Assembly (NCBI GenBank): GCA_947643715.1
Contig: CANRXB010000012.1
Location: forward strand, 444 to 64,443
Direction: 5' to 3'
From: an uncultured bacterium
GTDB taxonomy: Bacteria; Bacillota; Clostridia; Oscillospirales; Oscillospiraceae
DNA: 64,000 nt
The position numbers and the translations under genes were made by a program. Numbering within the stretch: position 1 is the stretch's first letter; every line of letters begins with the position of its first letter. Positions 53,470 through 64,000 of this stretch are shown here, one piece after another. The notes under the pieces were generated by a model. That model saw nothing but the letters and a program-made list of their open reading frames with translations. It did no database searches and had not been told where the DNA came from.

Positions 53470-53488
53470 TTCGATGGAGGTGGTATCC

Positions 53489-53685
53489 ATGTGGACGGCA
53501 TGGCTGTTATTGACATTGAACGGGTTGTTCTTCACCCTTCGTTTGGCAGGGAACACGGGTTCCTTCCCTCGGGCCCTCACCCGCGAAGAGGAGCAGGACT
53601 GCCTGCAGCGGATGGCGGAGGGCGACTCTGACGCCCGGGACATGCTCATCGAGCACAACCTGCGGCTGGTGGCTCATATCGTTAA
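53489..53685 (+). CDS. sigK: Pro-sigma-K, 5' fragment (codons 1-65) of a split gene
   Basis: Hydrophobic pro-sequence, SFPRAL, LIEHNLRLVAHIV, then a premature stop from element sequence. Confidence 0.92.
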
Positions 53686-55313
53686 AAACTGATAAAGCGG
53701 AAGGAAGCTGTTCGGCGGTCAAAAACGGCCCTCACAGGGCCGCCGCATCTCAAGTGGACGTCCAGATGGATCTCCTCTCTCGTACTGCCCTTTTTCACCA
53801 CGATATGGTCCAATATCGTGGTGACGAGGGAGGGATCGATGCCGTTTTGGAAGGTCAGTTCTCGCTCCAGGACGGCGCGGATCTCCTCCGTCCTGGCGGC
53901 GGTCCCTCTGCTCTTTTCCGCCTCCATCCGAAGCGCCGCCCGCTTTTCTTCCAAGGCTTCGGCCTGCCGGTTGAAGCTGTCGTTGCGCTGCTTGAACTCC
54001 GCCATGGTGACGATGCCTTCGATGCTCATCTCCAGCAGGCGGTCTTTTTTTGCCCGGATCGCAGCCAGGTCCTCCTCGATCCGGCGGATATCCTGGGTAT
54101 AGTCGCGCTCCTCCGGGACGGCCCGGAGAACGCTCATCACCGCGCCGATGATGGCCTGTTTGTCCTGAGCGAGCCTGTCGAAGATCTCGGCCATGATCCG
54201 ATCCAGCTCCTTGGTGCGCAGATGAGGGGCCGTACACCCCGCCCTCCCCCGGCTGCGGTACTCCCGGCATTGCCACGTCTCTGTCGTCCCTTTGGCGCTC
54301 TTGATGGCCTGCCGGTGGAACCGGGTCCCGTGCGCCTCACATACGATCTTACCGCTGTAGGGATATCGGTCATGGAACTGCGCCCCGCTCTGGTGGGACT
54401 TCATCTGCCGGCTCCTCTGTTTGTACAGCGCGTTCGCCCGGTCCCACAGCTCCTCGGACACGATCGCCGGGACGGACGGATCGGGGTACATCACCCACTC
54501 GCTCTCGTCTAGGAATACCTTCCGCTTGCTGCGGTAGTCCACCGTCTGGGACTTGTTGGCGCAGTACCAGCCCTTGTATTTGGGGTTGCACAGGATGTTC
54601 CGGATGGTCAGCACGTTGAAGGCGTTGCCCCTGCGGCTGGTGAAGCCCTCGTCCAGCAGCGTCCGGGAGATGCGCCGTATCCCCATCTGCCGGTTGGCGT
54701 AGAGGTCGAAGATCCGCCGCACCACCTGGGCCTCCTCTTCGTCGATGGTCAGCACACAGTCCTTCTTGTCATACCCCCAGATCCGGTCGTTGCCCAGCAC
54801 ATGCCCGTTCTTGATGGCCTGCCGGAAGCCGAACTTCAGCCGCTCGGACAGCTTGCGCACCTCGTCCTGGGCCACCCCGGCCATGACCACCAGGCGGAAC
54901 TCGCTGTCGCTGTCCAGGGTGTTGATGTTGTCGTTCTGGAACAGCACCCCCACGTCGTGCTCCAGCAGCTCCTGGGTGTACTTGATGCTGTCCAGGGTGG
55001 AGCGGGAAAAGCGGGATATCTCCTTCGTGATGATGAAGTCGAAGCACCCCGCTTTGGCGTCCGCTATCATCCGCAAGAAGCTGTCCCGCTTTTTGGTGCT
55101 GGTTCCGGAGATGCCCTCGTCGATGTATCCCGGCACGAATATCCAGTCGCGCTTGCTCCGGATCAGCTCGGTGTAGTATTGGACCTGGTTCCCCAGGCTG
55201 TTGATCTGCTCGTCCTTGTCGGTGGAGACCCTGGCATAGAAGGTCACCCGCAGAGGAAGCTCGAAAATGGTCCTCCCCTTCCGCAGCTCATTTCGTATCT
55301 CAAGGATATCCAC
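53682..55313 (-). CDS. Large serine recombinase (SpoIVCA-like)
   Basis: FYARVST catalytic motif, KEISRFSR, recombinase domain, Zn-ribbon CEAHG...WQC...C, coiled coil; GTG start after AGGAGG. Confidence 0.95.
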   Translation of the reverse strand: MDILEIRNELRKGRTIFELPLRVTFYARVSTDKDEQINSLGNQVQYYTELIRSKRDWIFVPGYIDEGISGTSTKKRDSFLRMIADAKAGCFDFIITKEISRFSRSTLDSIKYTQELLEHDVGVLFQNDNINTLDSDSEFRLVVMAGVAQDEVRKLSERLKFGFRQAIKNGHVLGNDRIWGYDKKDCVLTIDEEEAQVVRRIFDLYANRQMGIRRISRTLLDEGFTSRRGNAFNVLTIRNILCNPKYKGWYCANKSQTVDYRSKRKVFLDESEWVMYPDPSVPAIVSEELWDRANALYKQRSRQMKSHQSGAQFHDRYPYSGKIVCEAHGTRFHRQAIKSAKGTTETWQCREYRSRGRAGCTAPHLRTKELDRIMAEIFDRLAQDKQAIIGAVMSVLRAVPEERDYTQDIRRIEEDLAAIRAKKDRLLEMSIEGIVTMAEFKQRNDSFNRQAEALEEKRAALRMEAEKSRGTAARTEEIRAVLERELTFQNGIDPSLVTTILDHIVVKKGSTREEIHLDVHLRCGGPVRAVFDRRTASFRFISF

Positions 55314-55482
55314 CCTGCTCCGCCTCCTTCGCCGGGCACACAGGATACCGGAAAAACGCAGGGACATCCATCCCAGAACGCACCAGATCCATCGCGCCCA
55401 GATAGGTGGCCCTCGACAAAAGCCCGCGGGCGTAGAGCGCTTCCAAAAGGACGCCCATCAGCTCCTGCTGCGCACGTTCCAT
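55300..55482 (-). CDS. Small protein (60 aa) overlapping the recombinase start; candidate directionality factor
   Basis: GAGGTG RBS 7 nt upstream; overlaps the recombinase GTG; function is inference. Confidence 0.6.
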   Translation of the reverse strand: MERAQQELMGVLLEALYARGLLSRATYLGAMDLVRSGMDVPAFFRYPVCPAKEAEQGGYP

Positions 55483-55619
55483 GCTGCATCACCTCATCCA
55501 TGGATATGTGGCGGCATGAGGGAAGATTCCAGACGATCCGGGACCGATGTGAGGCGCCTCCCCGTTTCCGGGCGCATCCGACACGGCGCGCATCCCCTCG
55601 CATGACCCGAGAAGAACGA

Positions 55620-55648: not shown

Positions 55649-55698
55649 ATCATCTCCAGTGTTTATCAGGAATGACGACACGAGAAAGGAGAACGACC

Positions 55699-57756
55699 AT
55701 GGATAAAAGATTTGGACCGCTGTTCACCCCGTGGAAGATCGGAAACTGTGAGATCAAGAACCGGGTGGTGCTCACCTCTATGGGAGGCACGGACCTGCTG
55801 GGCTGGATGGAGAAGAACCATTTCGACCGGGCCGGGGCCCGATTCATCCTGGAGGCGGCCCGAAACGATGTGGGGCTGGTGCTGCCCGGCTGCCAGCCGG
55901 TGTACAACCCCATGTTCGGCCAGTGGCTGCACAAAAACAAGAAGATGTACCGGGATCTGGCCGCCTGGATGCCCGAGTTCCACAAGACCGGGGCCAAGCT
56001 GTTCGTCCAGCTCACCGCGGGCTTCGGCCGCTCCTTCACCATCAGCTCCATGATGGAGATGCTGTACACCAACCCCGCTCTGCGGGCGCTGTCCAGACCC
56101 TTCATGGATCTGGACAAGATCACCGCCACCGCCAGCCCCTCCCCCAACCGCTGGTCGGACAAGGTGCCCTCCCGCGAGATGACGGTGGCGGAGATCCGGG
56201 AGTTCGTGGACGCCTTCGCCCAGACCGCCAAGCTCCTCCAGGACGCCGGGGTGGACGGAGTGGAGGTCCACGCCGTCCACGAGGGCTACCTGCTGGACCA
56301 GTTCACCTTGAAGTATGTCAACAAGCGCACGGATCAGTACGGCGGCTCCTTCGAGAACCGCTACCGCTTCCCGGTGGAGATCGTCCAGGCCATCAAAGCG
56401 GCCTGCGGCCGGGACTTCCCCGTCTCCCTGCGGTACAGCGTGGTGTCCAAGACCAAGGGCTTCCGCCAGGGCGCCCTCCCTGGGGAGGACTTCGTGGAGG
56501 CCGGCCGTGACATGGAGGAATCGGAGCGAGCGGCGAAGTACCTCCAGGACGCGGGGTACGACATGCTCAATTGCGACAACGGCACCTACGACGCCTGGTA
56601 TTGGGCCCATCCGCCCATCTACATGCCGGAGAACTGCAACCTGGCCGACGTGGAGCACATCAAGAAGTTCGTGGACATCCCGGTGGTGTGCGCCGGGCGG
56701 CTGGATCCCCGGACGGCGGCCGAGTCCATCGAGGCGGGCAGACTGGACGGCGCGGGCTTCGCCCGGCAGTTCCTGGCCGACCCGGCCTGGGTCACCAAGC
56801 TGATGGAGGGCCGGGAGGCGGACATCCGTCCTTGCATCCTGTGCCACAACGGCTGCTTCAACATGTCCCACTACGAGGGCGTCCCCAACGACCAGGACCT
56901 GTACGACAGCCTCCACATGGCCCGGTGCGCCGTCAATGCGGAGATGATGCAGTGGGACCGGCACCATATCGACAAAGCCTTCTCCCCCAAGCGGGTACAT
57001 ATCATCGGCGGGGGCCTGGGCGGCATGGAGGCGGCCCGGGTACTGAAGCTCCGGGGCCACGAACCGATCGTCTACGAGAAGAGCGGCCGGCTGGGCGGGG
57101 CGTTCATCGCCGCCGGGGCGGAGTCCTACAAGGGCAAGCTCAGGGACCTGCTGGCCTGGTATGAACGGCAGATGGAGCAATTGGGGATCGAGATCCATCT
57201 CGGCACGGAGATCGGAGATGTGAGCCGGTTCGGGACGGATCAGGTGATCGTGGCCACCGGCGCGGCCCCCATCGTGCTCCGGGGCATCCAAGGCCACGAG
57301 CGGATGATAGAGGCCATCGACTTCCTGCTGGGGAACGAGACCGTGGGCGAGCGGGTGGCCGTCGTGGGCGGCGGGCTCACCGGCTGCGAGATCGCCTACG
57401 AGCTGGCCCTCCAGGGCAAGCATCCCGTCATCATCGAGATGAAGAACGATCTGGTGGCCCAAAAGGGCGTGTGCCTGGCCAACAGCTCCTATCTCCGGGA
57501 GTGGTTCGCCCTGCACGGCGTGCCCATCCACCTGGAGACCACCTTGACCGCTGTCCACGAGGACAAGGTGGTCTGCCGGGACAAGGACGGCAGGACGGTG
57601 GAGATCCCCTGCGACAGCGTCATCAGCTCGGTGGGCTACGTGCCCCGGCCTTTGGCGGGCAAGGGCCGCAACATCCACTTCGTGGGTGACTGCAAGCAGG
57701 TGGGCAACGTCAAGACCGTGATCTGGGGTGCCTACGAGGCGGCCATGAAGATCTGA
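55699..57756 (+). CDS. Old-yellow-enzyme class Fe-S flavoenzyme (enoate reductase / BaiCD-H-like)
   Basis: EVHAVHEGYLLDQF, YGGSFENRYRF, CILCHNGC Fe-S motif, IIGGGLGGMEAA FAD/NAD site; start set at ATG 55699. Confidence 0.9.
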   Translation: MDKRFGPLFTPWKIGNCEIKNRVVLTSMGGTDLLGWMEKNHFDRAGARFILEAARNDVGLVLPGCQPVYNPMFGQWLHKNKKMYRDLAAWMPEFHKTGAKLFVQLTAGFGRSFTISSMMEMLYTNPALRALSRPFMDLDKITATASPSPNRWSDKVPSREMTVAEIREFVDAFAQTAKLLQDAGVDGVEVHAVHEGYLLDQFTLKYVNKRTDQYGGSFENRYRFPVEIVQAIKAACGRDFPVSLRYSVVSKTKGFRQGALPGEDFVEAGRDMEESERAAKYLQDAGYDMLNCDNGTYDAWYWAHPPIYMPENCNLADVEHIKKFVDIPVVCAGRLDPRTAAESIEAGRLDGAGFARQFLADPAWVTKLMEGREADIRPCILCHNGCFNMSHYEGVPNDQDLYDSLHMARCAVNAEMMQWDRHHIDKAFSPKRVHIIGGGLGGMEAARVLKLRGHEPIVYEKSGRLGGAFIAAGAESYKGKLRDLLAWYERQMEQLGIEIHLGTEIGDVSRFGTDQVIVATGAAPIVLRGIQGHERMIEAIDFLLGNETVGERVAVVGGGLTGCEIAYELALQGKHPVIIEMKNDLVAQKGVCLANSSYLREWFALHGVPIHLETTLTAVHEDKVVCRDKDGRTVEIPCDSVISSVGYVPRPLAGKGRNIHFVGDCKQVGNVKTVIWGAYEAAMKI

Positions 57757-57766
57757 GGAGGAAGCC

Positions 57767-59050
57767 ATGAGCGTAAAGATGAAACTGACCGCCGAGCAAC
57801 AGGCCATCCTGGACGGCAGCCAGGGGGAGACGCTGGCCAAGGTGATGGAGACGCTGGTGCGCTATGGCGAGCTGTTCGGGGCGGACTCCATGGCGCCCGT
57901 CACCAGCCAGTACAACCACCTGGTCACCTCCTTCGGGCTGAAGGCCCTGGGGCCGGTGTACGATCTGATGGACAAACTGATCGCGGAGGGCGCGGCGTCC
58001 AAGCAGCCGTTCTCCGCCGACCCCCGGCCGGTGGACAAGAACGTGCCCAGCTCTTTTTTGCAGGACTTCGTGTTCCGGAACTTCATGTACACCAAGCAGG
58101 ACTTTTACGAGGACCAGCTCAGCAAGCTGGGCCTCATGGACCGGGACGCTTTCACCTGCGCCTGCTATCTGGACCAGGTGGGCAACACCCCGAAGGAGGG
58201 GGACGTCCTGTCCTGGTCGGAGTCCTCCGCCGTGGTGTATGCCAACTCGGTGCTGGGGGCCCGGTGCAACCGCAACTCGGGCATCATCGACCTGATGGGC
58301 TCGGTGGTGGGGCACGTGCCCTACTTCGGCCTGCTCACCGACGAGGGGCGCAAGGCCACCTGGATCGTGGAGGTCAAGACCACCAAGAAGCCGGAGGCCC
58401 AGCTCCTGGGCTCCGCCATCGGCATGAAGGTGATGGAGGACGTGCCCTACCTCGTGGGGCTGGACCGGTGGCTGGGGACGCTGGACGACGCGGCCAGGAC
58501 CTACCTCAAGGACTTCGGCGCGGCCACCGCCTCCAACGGCGCGGTGGGCCTGTACCATGTGGAGGGCATCACCCCGGAGGCCGTCCGGCAGGGCCGGGAG
58601 CTGGTGGCGGAGGACGCCCAGGTATATGTGGTGGACGACGCGGAGCTCCAGCGGGTATACGACAGCTACCCTGTGATGTGGAAGGACAAGGGCGCGAGAC
58701 CGAAGCTGTGCTTCATGGGCTGTCCCCACATGAGCCTGGAGCAGCTCACCACCTGGACGGAGCGGGTGGAGCAGGGCCTGAGAGATTCGGGGCGGAAAAA
58801 GGTGGCCATCCCCACCGTGTTCACCGCCGCCCCCGCGGTCATCGAGCAGTTCCAGGCCACGCCCTATGGGGAGCGGCTGAAAAAGACGGGGGTCGTGCTC
58901 AGCTACATCTGCCCGCTGATGTATATGAACAACCCCTTGAGCGGCAAGATGCCCGTCATCACCTCCAGCAACAAGCTGCGCACCTATACCACCGCAAGGT
59001 ACTACACAGACGACGAGATCCTCGTCCAGATCACGAAAGGGGGCGACTGA
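57767..59050 (+). CDS. Aconitase X catalytic subunit (DUF521)
   Basis: FTCACY, WSESSAVVYANSVLGARCNR, GAVGLYHVEGITPE, FMGCPH, ICP, TSSNKLRTY. Confidence 0.88.
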   Translation: MSVKMKLTAEQQAILDGSQGETLAKVMETLVRYGELFGADSMAPVTSQYNHLVTSFGLKALGPVYDLMDKLIAEGAASKQPFSADPRPVDKNVPSSFLQDFVFRNFMYTKQDFYEDQLSKLGLMDRDAFTCACYLDQVGNTPKEGDVLSWSESSAVVYANSVLGARCNRNSGIIDLMGSVVGHVPYFGLLTDEGRKATWIVEVKTTKKPEAQLLGSAIGMKVMEDVPYLVGLDRWLGTLDDAARTYLKDFGAATASNGAVGLYHVEGITPEAVRQGRELVAEDAQVYVVDDAELQRVYDSYPVMWKDKGARPKLCFMGCPHMSLEQLTTWTERVEQGLRDSGRKKVAIPTVFTAAPAVIEQFQATPYGERLKKTGVVLSYICPLMYMNNPLSGKMPVITSSNKLRTYTTARYYTDDEILVQITKGGD

Positions 59051-59051
59051 G

Positions 59052-59501
59052 ATGCGCCAGTTCCAAGGCCGGGTGGTATCTCCCGGCAAGCTCACCGCCA
59101 AGGCTCTGGTGTCCCACGGGGGGCTGAACACCCTGGCCTCCTTCCAGAAGGCCCTGCAGTTCGGAGACAAGAAGGCCACCTGCGGCGACCAGAACAACCC
59201 CGACCTCTACGGCAAGCAGATGGCCGGGAAGGCCCTGTGCCTGCCCCGGACCATCGGCTCCACCACCGGAGGGCTGGTGCTGTACTGCGCCTGTTCCATG
59301 GGGCGCCAGCCGGCGTGCCTGTTGTTCTCCGAGCCCATCGACTCCCTGGCGGCCGCCGGGGCGGTGCTGTCCGACGTCTGGCTGGAGGGGGAACACACCT
59401 CCATGCCGGTGGTGGACAGTCTGGGCGAGGAGTTCCTGGACTTCGTCCAGGACGGCATGACCATCAACGTCCTGTCGGACGGCGTGGTCCAGGTCATCTG
59501 A
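59052..59501 (+). CDS. Aconitase X swivel subunit (DUF126)
   Basis: GRVVSPG, MAGKALCLPRTIGSTTG, AAGAVL, MPVVD. Confidence 0.85.
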   Translation: MRQFQGRVVSPGKLTAKALVSHGGLNTLASFQKALQFGDKKATCGDQNNPDLYGKQMAGKALCLPRTIGSTTGGLVLYCACSMGRQPACLLFSEPIDSLAAAGAVLSDVWLEGEHTSMPVVDSLGEEFLDFVQDGMTINVLSDGVVQVI

Positions 59502-59513
59502 CGGAGGGCGCGC

Positions 59514-60272
59514 ATGACGATCTTATCTCGATTGAACGGCCCGGCCGTGTATGCCGTGTGCGGCGGCATCGTGGCCTTCGTGGCCGTGGTCTGCGTCGTG
59601 TTCATGGTCCGGGCCTGGCGGGCCGGCGTGGCCCTGGGCATGGACAAGACCAAGATGCGCCGGGTGGTCACCGCCAGCATCACCTTCTCCGCCCTGCCCA
59701 GCGTGGGGATCCTCTTGGGGGTCATCGCCCTGTCGGGCAGCCTGGGCACTCCCTGGCCCTGGCTGCGGCTGAGCGTGGTGGGCGCCCTCCACTACGAGAC
59801 GCAGGTGGCCCAGGCCGCCGCCGAGCAGGTGGGCATGAGCAGCCTCTCCGCCGCTGAGATGACGCCTCGGGCCTTCACCACCATCGCCCTGCTCATGAGC
59901 GTATGTATCATGTGGGGGATGCTGCTGTCCGCCCTGTTCAACAAGCGGTATCTCAAGAAGCTGGGCGCAGGCACGGGCTCCGGCGGCGGGGCCGTGGCGG
60001 GCTTCGGCGACAAGGCCATGACCGCCATGTTCATCGGCCTCATCTGCGCCTATGTGGGCAGCTATATCGGCGGCTTCGTGTCCGGGGAAGGGCCGTTCAC
60101 CTTCGCCGGGGACTGGACGCCGCTGGCAGTGGCCGGGGTGTCCGGCCTGACCATGGCCGGGTGCGTCTGGCTGTCGGAGAAAAAGGGCATGGCCTGGCTG
60201 GAGAGCTTCTCCATCGCGGGCAGCATGCTGCTGGGCATGGCCGCGGCGGTGCTGCTGCGGCTGTGGCTGTAG
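59514..60272 (+). CDS. DUF5058 family membrane protein
   Basis: LGTPWPWLRLSVVGALHYE motif; multiple TM helices. Confidence 0.8.
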   Translation: MTILSRLNGPAVYAVCGGIVAFVAVVCVVFMVRAWRAGVALGMDKTKMRRVVTASITFSALPSVGILLGVIALSGSLGTPWPWLRLSVVGALHYETQVAQAAAEQVGMSSLSAAEMTPRAFTTIALLMSVCIMWGMLLSALFNKRYLKKLGAGTGSGGGAVAGFGDKAMTAMFIGLICAYVGSYIGGFVSGEGPFTFAGDWTPLAVAGVSGLTMAGCVWLSEKKGMAWLESFSIAGSMLLGMAAAVLLRLWL

Positions 60273-60287
60273 GAAGGGGGCCATCCA

Positions 60288-60980
60288 ATGAACGAACGAG
60301 ACGGACAGGCGGCATTCGACCGCTATAACGAGCAGACCCACCTCATCGGCCAGGTGGTGAGCGTCGCCACCCTGGTCTTGCTCATCGGCGCTCCCTTCGT
60401 ACTGGGCGCCATCCTGGGCGACATGCCCGACGTCGGGGCGGTCGCCCGGAGCTTCCTCTCCGTGGGCCTGGTGTGGATGGTCAGCGGAGTGGCGGAATAC
60501 CTCATCTATACCCCTATGCTGGGGGCGGGAGGGAGCTATCTGGCCTTCATCACCGGCAACCTCATCAACATGAAGATCCCCTGCGCCATCAGCGCCCGGG
60601 ACATGGTGGGCGCCAAGACGGGGACGGCGGAGAACGAGGTGATCTCCACGCTGTCCATCGCGGCGTCCTCCCTGGTGACCATCCTGGTGCTGGCTTTGGG
60701 CGTGCTGCTGCTGGTCCCGCTCCAGCCCATCCTCCAGAGCGAGGTGCTCCAGCCCGCTTTCGCCAACGTGGTCCCCGCGCTGTTCGGGGCCATGGCATAC
60801 AAGTATTTCCGGGGGAACATGAAGATCGCCGTCACACCGCTGGTGGTCATGAGCCTGCTGTTCATGCTGGTCCCCAGCCTCACCGGGTCCACCAGCTTCA
60901 TGATCGTCCCCAGCGGAGCTATGGCCATCGCCATCACCTGGGTCCTATACCGACATGAAAGGAAGTCGAACGACAAATGA
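60288..60980 (+). CDS. Membrane protein that typically partners DUF5058 (putative transporter subunit)
   Basis: YTPMLGAGGSYLAFITGNLINMKIPCA; TM-rich. Confidence 0.75.
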   Translation: MNERDGQAAFDRYNEQTHLIGQVVSVATLVLLIGAPFVLGAILGDMPDVGAVARSFLSVGLVWMVSGVAEYLIYTPMLGAGGSYLAFITGNLINMKIPCAISARDMVGAKTGTAENEVISTLSIAASSLVTILVLALGVLLLVPLQPILQSEVLQPAFANVVPALFGAMAYKYFRGNMKIAVTPLVVMSLLFMLVPSLTGSTSFMIVPSGAMAIAITWVLYRHERKSNDK

Positions 60981-62557
60981 AGAAAAGACATAAGCGCGCG
61001 CTGGCCATACTGGCCGCAAAAAAGGCGGGGGGATATCTCCTAGACGCGGCGGTGGCCCGGAAAATGCCGCCCAAGCGGGTCGAACGGCCTGAGCCCCCCA
61101 AGCAGTGCCCCTATGCCAAAGCTGCCGCCACCGCTCTGACCGCAGTCGGGGTGGCCGCAGGAGCCGCCCTGGGCGTGGCGCTGGCCCGCACCGCCCTGAC
61201 CCCGAAGAAACGATCCGAATATGTCCCCGCCCCGGACGGCCGGGCCATGGACTATGCCCAGAAGCTGTCCGCCATGGTCCAATGCGACACGACCTCCCAC
61301 GCCGGCGTGGCGGAAACAGAAAAGTTCCTGGCCTTCCACAAGGAGCTGGAGCGGCTGTTCCCCCTGGTCCACCGGGATCTGGAAAAGACCGTCATCGACG
61401 GCAACCTGCTCTTCCGCTGGAAGGGCAGGACGGACGCGGACCCCATCGTCCTCATGAGCCACCAGGACGTGGTGCCCGCCGAGGGAGAATGGCTCCACCC
61501 GCCCTTCTCCGGCGCCATCGTGGATGGCAAGGTGTGGGGCCGGGGCGCTTTCGACACGAAAGCCTCCCTCATGGCCTTCTTCCAGGGCGTGGAGGAGCTG
61601 TTGGCCGAGGGCTATGTGCCTGAGTGCGACGTGTATCTGGCCTCCTCCTGCACCGAGGAGTGGGCGGGAGACGGGGCCCCCAAGCTGGTGGCCGAGCTCC
61701 AGCGCCGGAACGTGCGTCCCTTCCTGGTCATCGACGAGGGCGGCGGCGTGATCACCGACCCCATCGGCGGCGTCAAGGGCAATTTCGCCATGGTGGGCGT
61801 GTTCGAGAAGGGCAAGGCGGACGTGCGCTTCACCGCCCGCAGCTCCGGCGGACACGCCAGCGCCCCAGGCAAGGGCACCCCCATCGCCCGGCTGTCGGCT
61901 TTCGTCAACGAGATGGAGACCAAGCCCCCCTTCCGGAAGAAGCTCCTGCCGGAAGTGAAGGCCATGTTCAGGCGCCTGTCCCCCTACGCCCCCTTCCACC
62001 TGCGGCTGGTGATGGGCAACCTGTGGCTGTTCGGCCCGGTGATGAAGAAGGTCATGCCTGCCGTCTCCGCCCAAGCCGCGGCCATGCTCCAGACCACCAT
62101 CGCCTTCACCATGCAGTCCGGGTCCGACGCCTGCAACGTCTTGCCCCAGCAGGCCAGCGTCAGCGCCAATATGCGTTTCATCCCTCACCAGGGGGAGCGG
62201 GAGAGCCTGGACCTGGTCCGGGAACGGGCGGCGAAATACGGCTTGGAGATGGAGATCATGCACTCCAGCGACTACACCAGGCCCGTGGACATCAAGGGCA
62301 AGGCGTTCCGCCAGGTGGAGCAGGTCATCGAGGCCACCTTCCCCGGACTGCCGGTGTGTCCTTACGTGATGACCGGCGCCACCGACGCCAGCTTCTATCA
62401 GGCCATCTGTGACGATTGCGTCCGCTTCGCCCCGGTCGTGGCCGGGCCGGAGCAGATGAAGGGGATGCACGGCCTGAACGAGACCATGGGCGTGGATTGT
62501 CTGCCCAAAGCGGTCGATTTCTATAAGGACCTGATCCGCGCCCAGGAGAGACGGTGA
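60977..62557 (+). CDS. M20/M25/M40 family metallo-peptidase/amidohydrolase with N-terminal basic extension and TM anchor
   Basis: SHQDVVP, GRGAFDTK, CTEEW, IDEGG, GGHAS, HGLNE. Confidence 0.9.
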   Translation: MKKRHKRALAILAAKKAGGYLLDAAVARKMPPKRVERPEPPKQCPYAKAAATALTAVGVAAGAALGVALARTALTPKKRSEYVPAPDGRAMDYAQKLSAMVQCDTTSHAGVAETEKFLAFHKELERLFPLVHRDLEKTVIDGNLLFRWKGRTDADPIVLMSHQDVVPAEGEWLHPPFSGAIVDGKVWGRGAFDTKASLMAFFQGVEELLAEGYVPECDVYLASSCTEEWAGDGAPKLVAELQRRNVRPFLVIDEGGGVITDPIGGVKGNFAMVGVFEKGKADVRFTARSSGGHASAPGKGTPIARLSAFVNEMETKPPFRKKLLPEVKAMFRRLSPYAPFHLRLVMGNLWLFGPVMKKVMPAVSAQAAAMLQTTIAFTMQSGSDACNVLPQQASVSANMRFIPHQGERESLDLVRERAAKYGLEMEIMHSSDYTRPVDIKGKAFRQVEQVIEATFPGLPVCPYVMTGATDASFYQAICDDCVRFAPVVAGPEQMKGMHGLNETMGVDCLPKAVDFYKDLIRAQERR

Positions 62558-62637: not shown

Positions 62638-62734
62638 TAATCTGTGTGGCGTATCAAAGATGGCGCATACGATCCGGTGGTCCCTGAGAGGCCGCTTTCG
62701 ACCAGGAAACATCTTCCCTTTGCTTCACCCGTCT

Positions 62735-62872
62735 AAGAAGTATTATACCCCCAACGGCGACCAGGACGATCTAATCTCTATCGGGACCATCGGCCTGATC
62801 AAAGGCGTGTCCACGTTCAAGGCAGATAAAAACGTGCGGCTCGCCACCTATGCCAGCCGGTGCATCGAGAAT
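62735..62872 (+). CDS. sigK: Sigma-K, middle fragment (46 codons, region 2) of a split gene
   Basis: KKYYTPNGDQDDLISIGTIGLIKGVSTFKADKNVRLATYASRCIEN, then TIHSQ instead of the expected EILM. Confidence 0.92.
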
Positions 62873-62967
62873 ACTATCCACTCGCAACGGCTCAAAAGGC
62901 CCTTGATGTGGGCAATCGTACATACTTTGGCGAAAAATGGCGTACGTTCGGCCACACATCGGACCGC

Positions 62968-63486
62968 ATGAAAATAATGGTCCTCCATACTCCCACGGGC
63001 GTTATCTACGCACCTCTTTACATTCACAGTTTCCAGCTTGTCCAACCTCACACGCTGGTGGAGGCGGAAAAGTTCAACATCCAATACACCGATCCCTCTC
63101 AAATCCACAATACGCCGGACAAGCTCCGCTGGTACAGATACAGCCAGGGTTTGCGGCAAAAGGATGTGGCGAAGTACGCTGGGATAGACCGCACCACATA
63201 CTCCAGCTATGAAGAAATTGGGCGGGACTATTATCCCATTGAAACCATGCGGAAAATTGCGGAGCTGTTCTCCGTCCCTGTCACAAGGCTCCTGGATGAT
63301 TTCAACCTGTTTCTCTATCACGGCCAGGGCCAGCAAATCAGGCAGGCCCGAGCACAGAAAAGCATGACACAAAAAGAGTACGCAAAATACCTTGGCGTCC
63401 CGTTTGGAACCTTGCAGCAATGGGAACAGGAGCAGAAAGCAGTATCCAAAAGCGCTTGGAAAAGTCTAAATGGGTTTAAGGAATAA
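62968..63486 (+). CDS. XRE-family regulator with two HTH domains
   Basis: LRQKDVAKYAGIDRTTYSSYE and MTQKEYAKYLGVPFGTLQQWE; ATG 62968 overlaps the stop of the interrupted sigK frame (ATGA). Confidence 0.8.
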   Translation: MKIMVLHTPTGVIYAPLYIHSFQLVQPHTLVEAEKFNIQYTDPSQIHNTPDKLRWYRYSQGLRQKDVAKYAGIDRTTYSSYEEIGRDYYPIETMRKIAELFSVPVTRLLDDFNLFLYHGQGQQIRQARAQKSMTQKEYAKYLGVPFGTLQQWEQEQKAVSKSAWKSLNGFKE

Positions 63487-63507
63487 TTGTGGCCCTTGTT
63501 TCAAAAA

Positions 63508-63546
63508 GGAAGCCGTCAAATCACTCGTGGATTTGGCGGCTTCCCT
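63508..63546. terminator. Terminator between convergent element genes
   Basis: GGAAGCCGTCAAATC/GATTTGGCGGCTTCC stem with an A run on the left. Confidence 0.7.
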
Positions 63547-63573
63547 TGATGTATTTCAAATTAGCCAGATCAC

Positions 63574-63918
63574 TTAGAATCTCAGCGGTGCTTCATTTGA
63601 GCATAAGATATGCCCATCTTTCTGTGATAAAACTTTTTGATTAGCCACCACCCTTACACACATTAGCAAATCATCAATGTTCTTCGGTCTTGCGGAACAC
63701 CTTTTTGCCAACTTTTTAGCAAGTTGACGTTTCACATCGTCTACACCTCTCGGAACTTCCTGCCGACCTGAACTCACAATATAAGCATCCAAAATTTGAA
63801 GATTTTTCAATAGGAAAGAAACCATTTCATTACCTTCGATATTCTTCAAAGTTTCCTCAATTTGTTCATAAGCCCTTTTTATTACAGTTCCTTTTAGTTC
63901 AATTAAATGGCATTTCAT
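63574..63918 (-). CDS. Hypothetical protein (114 aa), AT-rich
   Basis: Only sizeable ORF in the AT-rich end; no family recognised; start uncertain. Confidence 0.45.
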   Translation of the reverse strand: MKCHLIELKGTVIKRAYEQIEETLKNIEGNEMVSFLLKNLQILDAYIVSSGRQEVPRGVDDVKRQLAKKLAKRCSARPKNIDDLLMCVRVVANQKVLSQKDGHILCSNEAPLRF

Positions 63919-64000
63919 GTTGATTTCATCATAGCAAAGAAAATCACACTTTTTTATCCCTTCCCGAACATTTGGTATAATACCACGATCAACAGTGACA

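Follow-up and report, generated by a model that had tools for sequence, protein, structure and literature searches.

In the window analysed here, a 64-kb stretch of contig C12 (444-64443), the gene sigK was found to be broken by an insertion of 9,051 bp (hereafter element 1), and both breaks fall at the same dinucleotide, AA, in positions 53684-53685 and 62735-62736. The coordinates of the features discussed are collected in Table 1. The 5' fragment of sigK encodes the pro-sequence and continues as far as ...EHNLRLVAHIV and the first two bases of a Lys codon, past which the frame reads K-N-stop in foreign DNA. The frame resumes at 62737 with the rest of this Lys codon, followed by (K)KYYTPNGDQDDLISIG...RCIEN. 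When the two flanks were joined in silico they gave VAHIVKKYYTPNGDQDD, which is in frame and equals the uninterrupted sigK of relatives. Moreover, in nine related genomes the intact gene reads NLRLVAHI(V/I/M)KKYYT(P/Q/A)(N/S)GD(Q/T)DDLISIG, and that of L043, one of the nine, is nearly identical, at the DNA level, to the predicted attB. The join can therefore be considered exact, with no base gained or lost, as is proper to conservative recombination. The first-pass annotation had accepted that its crossover could not stand if sigK were left out of frame; the predicted join keeps the frame and agrees with the relatives. As in elements of the skin type, a mother-cell sporulation gene is split here, at 53685/53686 and 62736/62737, in a way that the predicted join would repair.

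The same gene is interrupted a second time. After ...RCIEN (62872/62873) the sequence changes to DNA of 44% G+C, which continues to the end of the contig, and the 3' part of sigK (EILMYFR...SRSYVSRIEK...) was located in the same genome, at the end of contig C65 (reverse strand, within the first ~530 bases). The junctions of this second insertion are TGCATCGAGAAT/ACTATCC and TGCATAGCAAAT/GAGATCC. A break after RCIEN is also present in L241 (G202), which comes from the same genome as the close relative L080. Because sigK is split twice, its restoration needs two excisions, and that of element 1 is not enough. The three pieces of the gene carry no frameshifts and their joins are exact.

Table 1. 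Features of element 1 and of the interrupted sigK gene in the window
Feature	Position	Strand	Remarks
sigK 5' fragment	53474..53685	+	ORF and translation; same motif in intact sigK of relatives
attL	53659..53710	+	B arm 53659-53683, crossover AA 53684-53685, P' arm 53686-53710
Recombinase stop codon TAA	53682..53684	-	one core base and two sigK bases
Large serine recombinase gene	53682..55313	-	likely start GTG 55313; open frame to 55367
60-aa ORF, candidate recombination directionality factor	55300..55482	-	overlaps recombinase start by 14 nt
-10-like motif CATATCCAT	55500..55508	-	upstream of small ORF and recombinase
Cargo, six-gene metabolic operon	55672..62557	+	OYE/Pyr_redox fusion, AcnX large and small subunits, DUF5058, unknown protein, M20 peptidase
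attR	62710..62761	+	P arm 62710-62734, crossover AA 62735-62736, B' arm 62737-62761
sigK middle fragment	62737..62872	+	Pfam Sigma70_r2
Second, unrelated insertion in sigK (start)	62873..64000		44% G+C; runs off contig C12

The cargo of element 1 is a metabolic operon in which a Pfam search found no phage families, and in this respect the element resembles the non-prophage gin class rather than a prophage. The gene next to the left junction occupies an open frame of 561 codons (53682-55367, minus strand) whose product contains, in this order, the domains PF00239 Resolvase (E = 7.8e-28), PF07508 Recombinase (6.5e-23) and PF13408 Zn_ribbon_recom (1e-7), which is the order that defines a large serine recombinase. 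The closest solved relative is PDB 3g13, which matches the catalytic domain (7e-42). The alignments of the family start at residue 19 of the long frame, upstream of which 28 relatives show a stop codon, and for these reasons the likely start is the GTG at 55313 and not the first ATG of the long frame. The protein ends in ...ASFRFISF-TAA, with the last 8-9 codons (..ASFRFISF) lying within the P' arm of attL.

A hairpin, GGCCC-TGTGA-GGGCC followed by UUUUU, was observed within the recombinase ORF at 53724-53747 on the minus strand, 39 nt before the stop, and a similar hairpin with a compensatory change occurs in the close relatives L002, L005, L007 and L008. As a terminator it was rejected, the folding energy being unremarkable against shuffled sequences (z = -1.06) and the hairpin being absent from the terminator scan.

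Upstream of the recombinase, 53 of the 73 related loci encode, in the same position, a conserved counterpart of the protein of the 60-aa ORF, and it is to this ORF that the conserved DNA upstream of the recombinase start belongs. From its position and conservation we consider its product a candidate for a directionality factor similar to Skr. Ahead of the RBS of the small ORF, a motif CATA(T/C)nnn was found at a fixed distance in 47 of 48 related upstream regions, compared with 5% of random windows. Promoters recognised by sigma-E and sigma-K have CATA as their -10 core, and the conservation of the motif suggests control by sigma-E/sigma-K. In the 47 of 48 relatives that have it the motif stands 9-18 nt from the RBS, and its position is the same in L057-L135. 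In many relatives it is preceded by a terminator hairpin, the GGCATTTTT tail of which may act as a -35 region.

The left junction of element 1 reads ATCGTT-AA-AAACTGATAAAGCGG and the right junction GCTTCACCCGTCT-AA-GAAGTAT, or CACCCGTCT-AA-GAAGTAT; the junctions ATCGTT-AA and AA-GAAGTAT that had been proposed at first reading are both found in the sequence. The attP predicted for the circle (...CCGTCT-AA-AAACTG...) is an imperfect inverted repeat of ~50 bp, with a 2-bp non-palindromic crossover that it shares with attB (...ATCGTT-AA-GAAGTAT...). When this site is centred on AA, 17 of the 25 positions are complementary (binomial p(>=17/25, p = 0.25) = 7e-6), which is the count given in the first-pass annotation and is reached at the AA centre only, other centres within three bases giving 4 to 11. 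The block of identity common to both junctions is TAA (53683-85 and 62734-36), so that identity alone permits a crossover at either TA or AA, with the same products for either choice. A crossover at TA (53683-84, 62734-35) is nevertheless highly improbable, and we rejected it on symmetry and on the evidence of the family. The symmetry of attP drops from 17 of 25 at AA to 5 of 25 at TA, and in L079, L102 and G183 AA is all that attL and attR share. In addition, TA is palindromic, and a palindromic central dinucleotide would leave a serine integrase without polarity. Among the 27 distinct elements whose two ends could be paired, the rebuilt attP is most symmetrical at AA in 26, with 13-20 of 25 positions complementary. 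The block of identity between attL and attR differs from element to element (TAA, AAGAA, TAAA and others), and AA is the only dinucleotide common to the blocks of all elements. Outward from the core the half-site has the consensus nAA(g/c)GGnT(g)AAGC(a/g)(a/g)AaGGA, equally conserved in coding and non-coding arms. Symmetry and comparison together thus make AA a well supported core, as had been proposed for a serine-recombinase att site.

The inverted repeat at the ends of element 1 extends further than the half-sites, to ~62 bp per arm (53686-53750 and 62670-62734), with 17, 14 and 13 matches in successive bins of 25 bp, and the non-coding right end resembles a degenerate copy of the recombinase 3' end. 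The idea that the P arm derives from the recombinase 3' end, as a relic left by an inversion, was discarded, as it does not hold as a rule in the family, where the symmetry of most relatives ends at ~25 bp.

Two hundred genomes of the same family were searched and one genome per species was scanned, and this recovered many relatives, among them 80 loci with 60-82% identity, all of which belong to Oscillospiraceae and allies. The cultured carriers include Clostridium leptum DSM 753, Oscillibacter sp. 1-3 and PC13, Zongyangia hominis NSJ-54 and Intestinimonas aquisgranensis. At 74 of the 80 loci the element adjoins sigK at this same AA, with which the first Lys codon begins; all 74 have the AA core and a recombinase gene whose 3' end lies within an att arm, its frame continuing without a stop into the core and always in one codon phase. 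Two arrangements were distinguished. Type L (29 elements, the window included) has the recombinase antisense to sigK, with its 3' end in the P' arm and next to the 5' fragment of sigK; in type R (45 elements) recombinase and sigK share a strand, and the recombinase gene ends in the P arm, next to the 3' fragment. The two types do not differ in codon phase relative to the core. Parsimony on a maximum-likelihood recombinase tree requires eight changes of arrangement, and well-supported branches force at least two of them. One possible route by which the arrangement could flip with the polarity of the core kept would be inversion between the terminal inverted repeats.

Taken together, these data make it likely that element 1 is a skin-like, non-prophage element that intervenes in sigK and owes its mobility to a large serine recombinase from a family common in Oscillospiraceae. 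Excision is something we infer from the sequence. The recombinase would bind two half-sites of ~25 bp on either side of the 2-bp AA crossover, the AA that begins the first Lys codon in sigK ...AHI(V/I/M)-KKYY.... By analogy with skinCd (PMC5025042) and with the skin element of B. subtilis (PMC6957869), attL and attR would be joined at AA during sporulation, in the mother cell, by the recombinase and a directionality factor. This would restore the sigK sequence across element 1 with no gain or loss of bases and would free a circle of 9,051 bp carrying attP. The directionality factor is probably the product of the 60-aa ORF, the expression of which is probably timed by the CATA-type promoter element.

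In this scheme the 3' end of the recombinase gene would itself be the P' half-site. Read antisense, GAAGC(A/G)(A/G)AAGGA gives the Ser-Phe-(Arg/Cys)-Phe with which these recombinases end, and since the half-site is conserved equally in coding and non-coding arms, it is the DNA site that dictates the C-terminal peptide and not the reverse. A gene whose 3' end is a half-site must always carry its frame into the crossover, and the DNA on the far side decides where that frame ends. In the integrated state of the window the stop codon TAA is composed of a T that pairs with the core base 53684 and of two A's that pair with the sigK bases 53683 and 53682; on the predicted circle it becomes TAG. The DNA beyond the crossover would thus give TAA (from the GTT codon of sigK) or TAG (from the P arm, ...CT), and the same enzyme would be made in both states. 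The first-pass annotation had reported this change from TAA to TAG with an unaltered protein, and the sequence arithmetic confirms it for the predicted circle. It had gone on to see in it the mark of selection for function before and after excision, and for this we found no support, the frequencies in the family being those of chance.

The selective reading holds that the junction stop is kept so that the integrated element, which needs the recombinase for excision, and the circle, which needs it for re-integration, make the same protein. In its favour are the identity of the predicted protein in both states, the finding that L080, from the same clade, stops in both states with bases different from those of the window, and the difference of only one residue between states in L117 and G111. 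How often such stops occur in the family tells against it. In type L the junction codon consists of T (from the core), the complement of the wobble base in the Val/Ile/Met codon of sigK, and A (the complement of the invariant second-position T), and this make-up gives a stop exactly when the wobble base is a pyrimidine. Integrated type L elements stop at the junction codon in 16 of 29 cases, one codon later in eight and twelve codons later in four, the remaining one not reaching a stop in the sequence examined. Uninterrupted sigK genes of the same family have an antisense stop at the junction codon in 26 of 45 cases, and within one codon in 38 of 45. The proportions at the junction codon of occupied and empty genes, 16/29 and 26/45, are indistinguishable (Fisher p = 1.0), with the proviso that the relatives are linked by descent and the elements are not independent counts. 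Judged by this comparison, the integrated-state stop is what sigK would supply anyway. The circle could be rebuilt for 20 type L elements with both ends known, the window among them, and four have a stop at the junction codon, namely the window (TAG), G111 (TAA), L080 (TGA) and L117 (TGA), which is the proportion to be expected from a random dinucleotide after T (3/16). One of the 20 gains a single residue on the circle, and 15 are extended by an unconserved stretch of 22 to more than 60 residues. The protein is identical in both states in two of the 20 (the window and L080), close to the product 0.55 x 0.19, and differs in the other 18. In type R, where the second base of the core is A, a stop at the junction codon is impossible: the integrated tail is 12 residues longer in 36 of 45 elements and up to 24 longer in others, one having no stop in the sequence examined, while circle tails are 16 to 70 residues longer. 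The tail differs between states in all elements of this mirror arrangement, including those of Clostridium leptum DSM 753 and Oscillibacter sp. 1-3. Moreover, an element excised in the mother cell has no need of a gene borne on the circle. We consequently regard selection on the stop as unlikely. From these comparisons the extreme C-terminus of the recombinase looks unconstrained, and functional elements appear to tolerate very different tails; the survival of the stop is best explained as a by-product of the codon that the host happens to use and of the sequence of the half-site. Within the clade of the window, weak selection specific to the lineage is conceivable, though two data points do not amount to evidence for it: the window, L080 and L065 form a well-supported trio on the recombinase tree, and L080, the only other testable member of the nearest clade, has TGA both integrated and on the circle. 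Had selection held, the stop would have been a neat case of a gene adapted to two DNA contexts; the comparison shows frequencies at the level of chance instead, and the claim should not be carried forward.

It could also be argued that element 1 does not excise at all, and that it is a fixed relic in a permanently broken sigK, with the att geometry a fossil. Two insertions in one gene would fit this, and so would the public contigs, where exact 26-mer scans for the predicted attP and attB junctions in metagenome contigs gave 0 matches each, that is, neither a circle nor an empty site; among IMG/VR contigs the relatives are flanked by sigK and show no terminal overlap, which makes them integrated forms. 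A relic would not be expected, however, to retain an intact recombinase frame with all three domains, a conserved small ORF and promoter motif, and three pieces of sigK that are free of frameshifts and join exactly. In addition, recent mobility is implied by the wide spread of the family and by the variety of its element sizes, with both orientations represented. We therefore hold a relic to be quite improbable and retain the reading of element 1 as an excisable skin-like element. Much the same slight credence is due to the proposal that a recombinase 3' end holding an attP half-site is a regulatory device, by which recombination rewrites the C-terminus in most members of the family. Were it true, the short integrated tails and the circle tails of 22 to more than 60 residues could differ in stability or directionality, comparable to the integration-dependent immunity of mycobacteriophages, and the small clade of the window would have secondarily fixed stops on both substrates, making its enzyme independent of state.

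The skin element of Bacillus subtilis is a 48-kb defective prophage. It also intervenes in sigK and is excised in the mother cell, with SpoIVCA and Skr as recombinase and directionality factor (PMC6957869). There skr overlaps the 5' end of spoIVCA, much as the 60-aa ORF overlaps the start of the element 1 recombinase (PMC6957869); the insertion site and att sequence of B. subtilis are different, and element 1 is known from sequence alone. A parallel may also be drawn with skinCd of Clostridioides difficile, which depends on the recombinase CD1231 and the directionality factor CD1234 and whose excision requires that this small factor be expressed under sporulation control (PMC5025042). Like element 1, it is a large serine recombinase element inside sigK, in which the 3' end of the recombinase gene adjoins the sigK junction and attL and attR are made of imperfect inverted repeats. 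The two differ in the site within sigK, in the shared sequence (a 2-bp core in element 1, a 12-bp motif in skinCd) and in the cargo, which is metabolic in element 1 and prophage-like in skinCd, and it is in element 1 that the recombinase stop straddles the crossover.

In Bacillus cereus ATCC 10987 the element gin interrupts gerE and uses GirC and GirX, and a central AA crossover has been predicted within its inverted repeat (PMC5595907). It has in common with element 1 a non-prophage, gene-intervening character, att sites that are imperfect inverted repeats and the predicted AA at their centre, whereas the target gene and the lineage of the recombinase are different and the sequence shared by the gin junctions is 9-bp long. 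An att site inside an ORF, such that recombination rewrites the 3' end of the gene, is also known from mycobacteriophage BPs, in which attP lies inside the repressor gene and a tyrosine integrase brings about integration-dependent immunity (PMC4557955). The BPs products differ by 33 residues and this difference is the switch, while in the window the predicted products of the integrated and free states are identical. The affected gene in BPs is that of the repressor; in most relatives of element 1 it is the tail of the recombinase that changes, and any use of the change is conjectural.

Element 1 would therefore be an ordinary skin-like element, of a kind already known, and what is new is a member with a cleanly defined att site. 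For a widespread and unstudied family that splits sigK in gut Oscillospiraceae, this site is now defined to the base pair, with an AA core, a half-site of ~25 bp and predicted attB and attP, so that excision assays can be designed directly, also for cultured relatives such as Zongyangia hominis NSJ-54, Oscillibacter sp. PC13 and Clostridium leptum DSM 753. Outside this group, a more distant branch (L015 and L017-L021, ~47-50% identity) has recombinases that end in ...TSVCT(R/E)QYT-TGA beside a different conserved target, TGATCCGGGC.GA.AT.GAGAC..., which suggests a second integration site in another gene.
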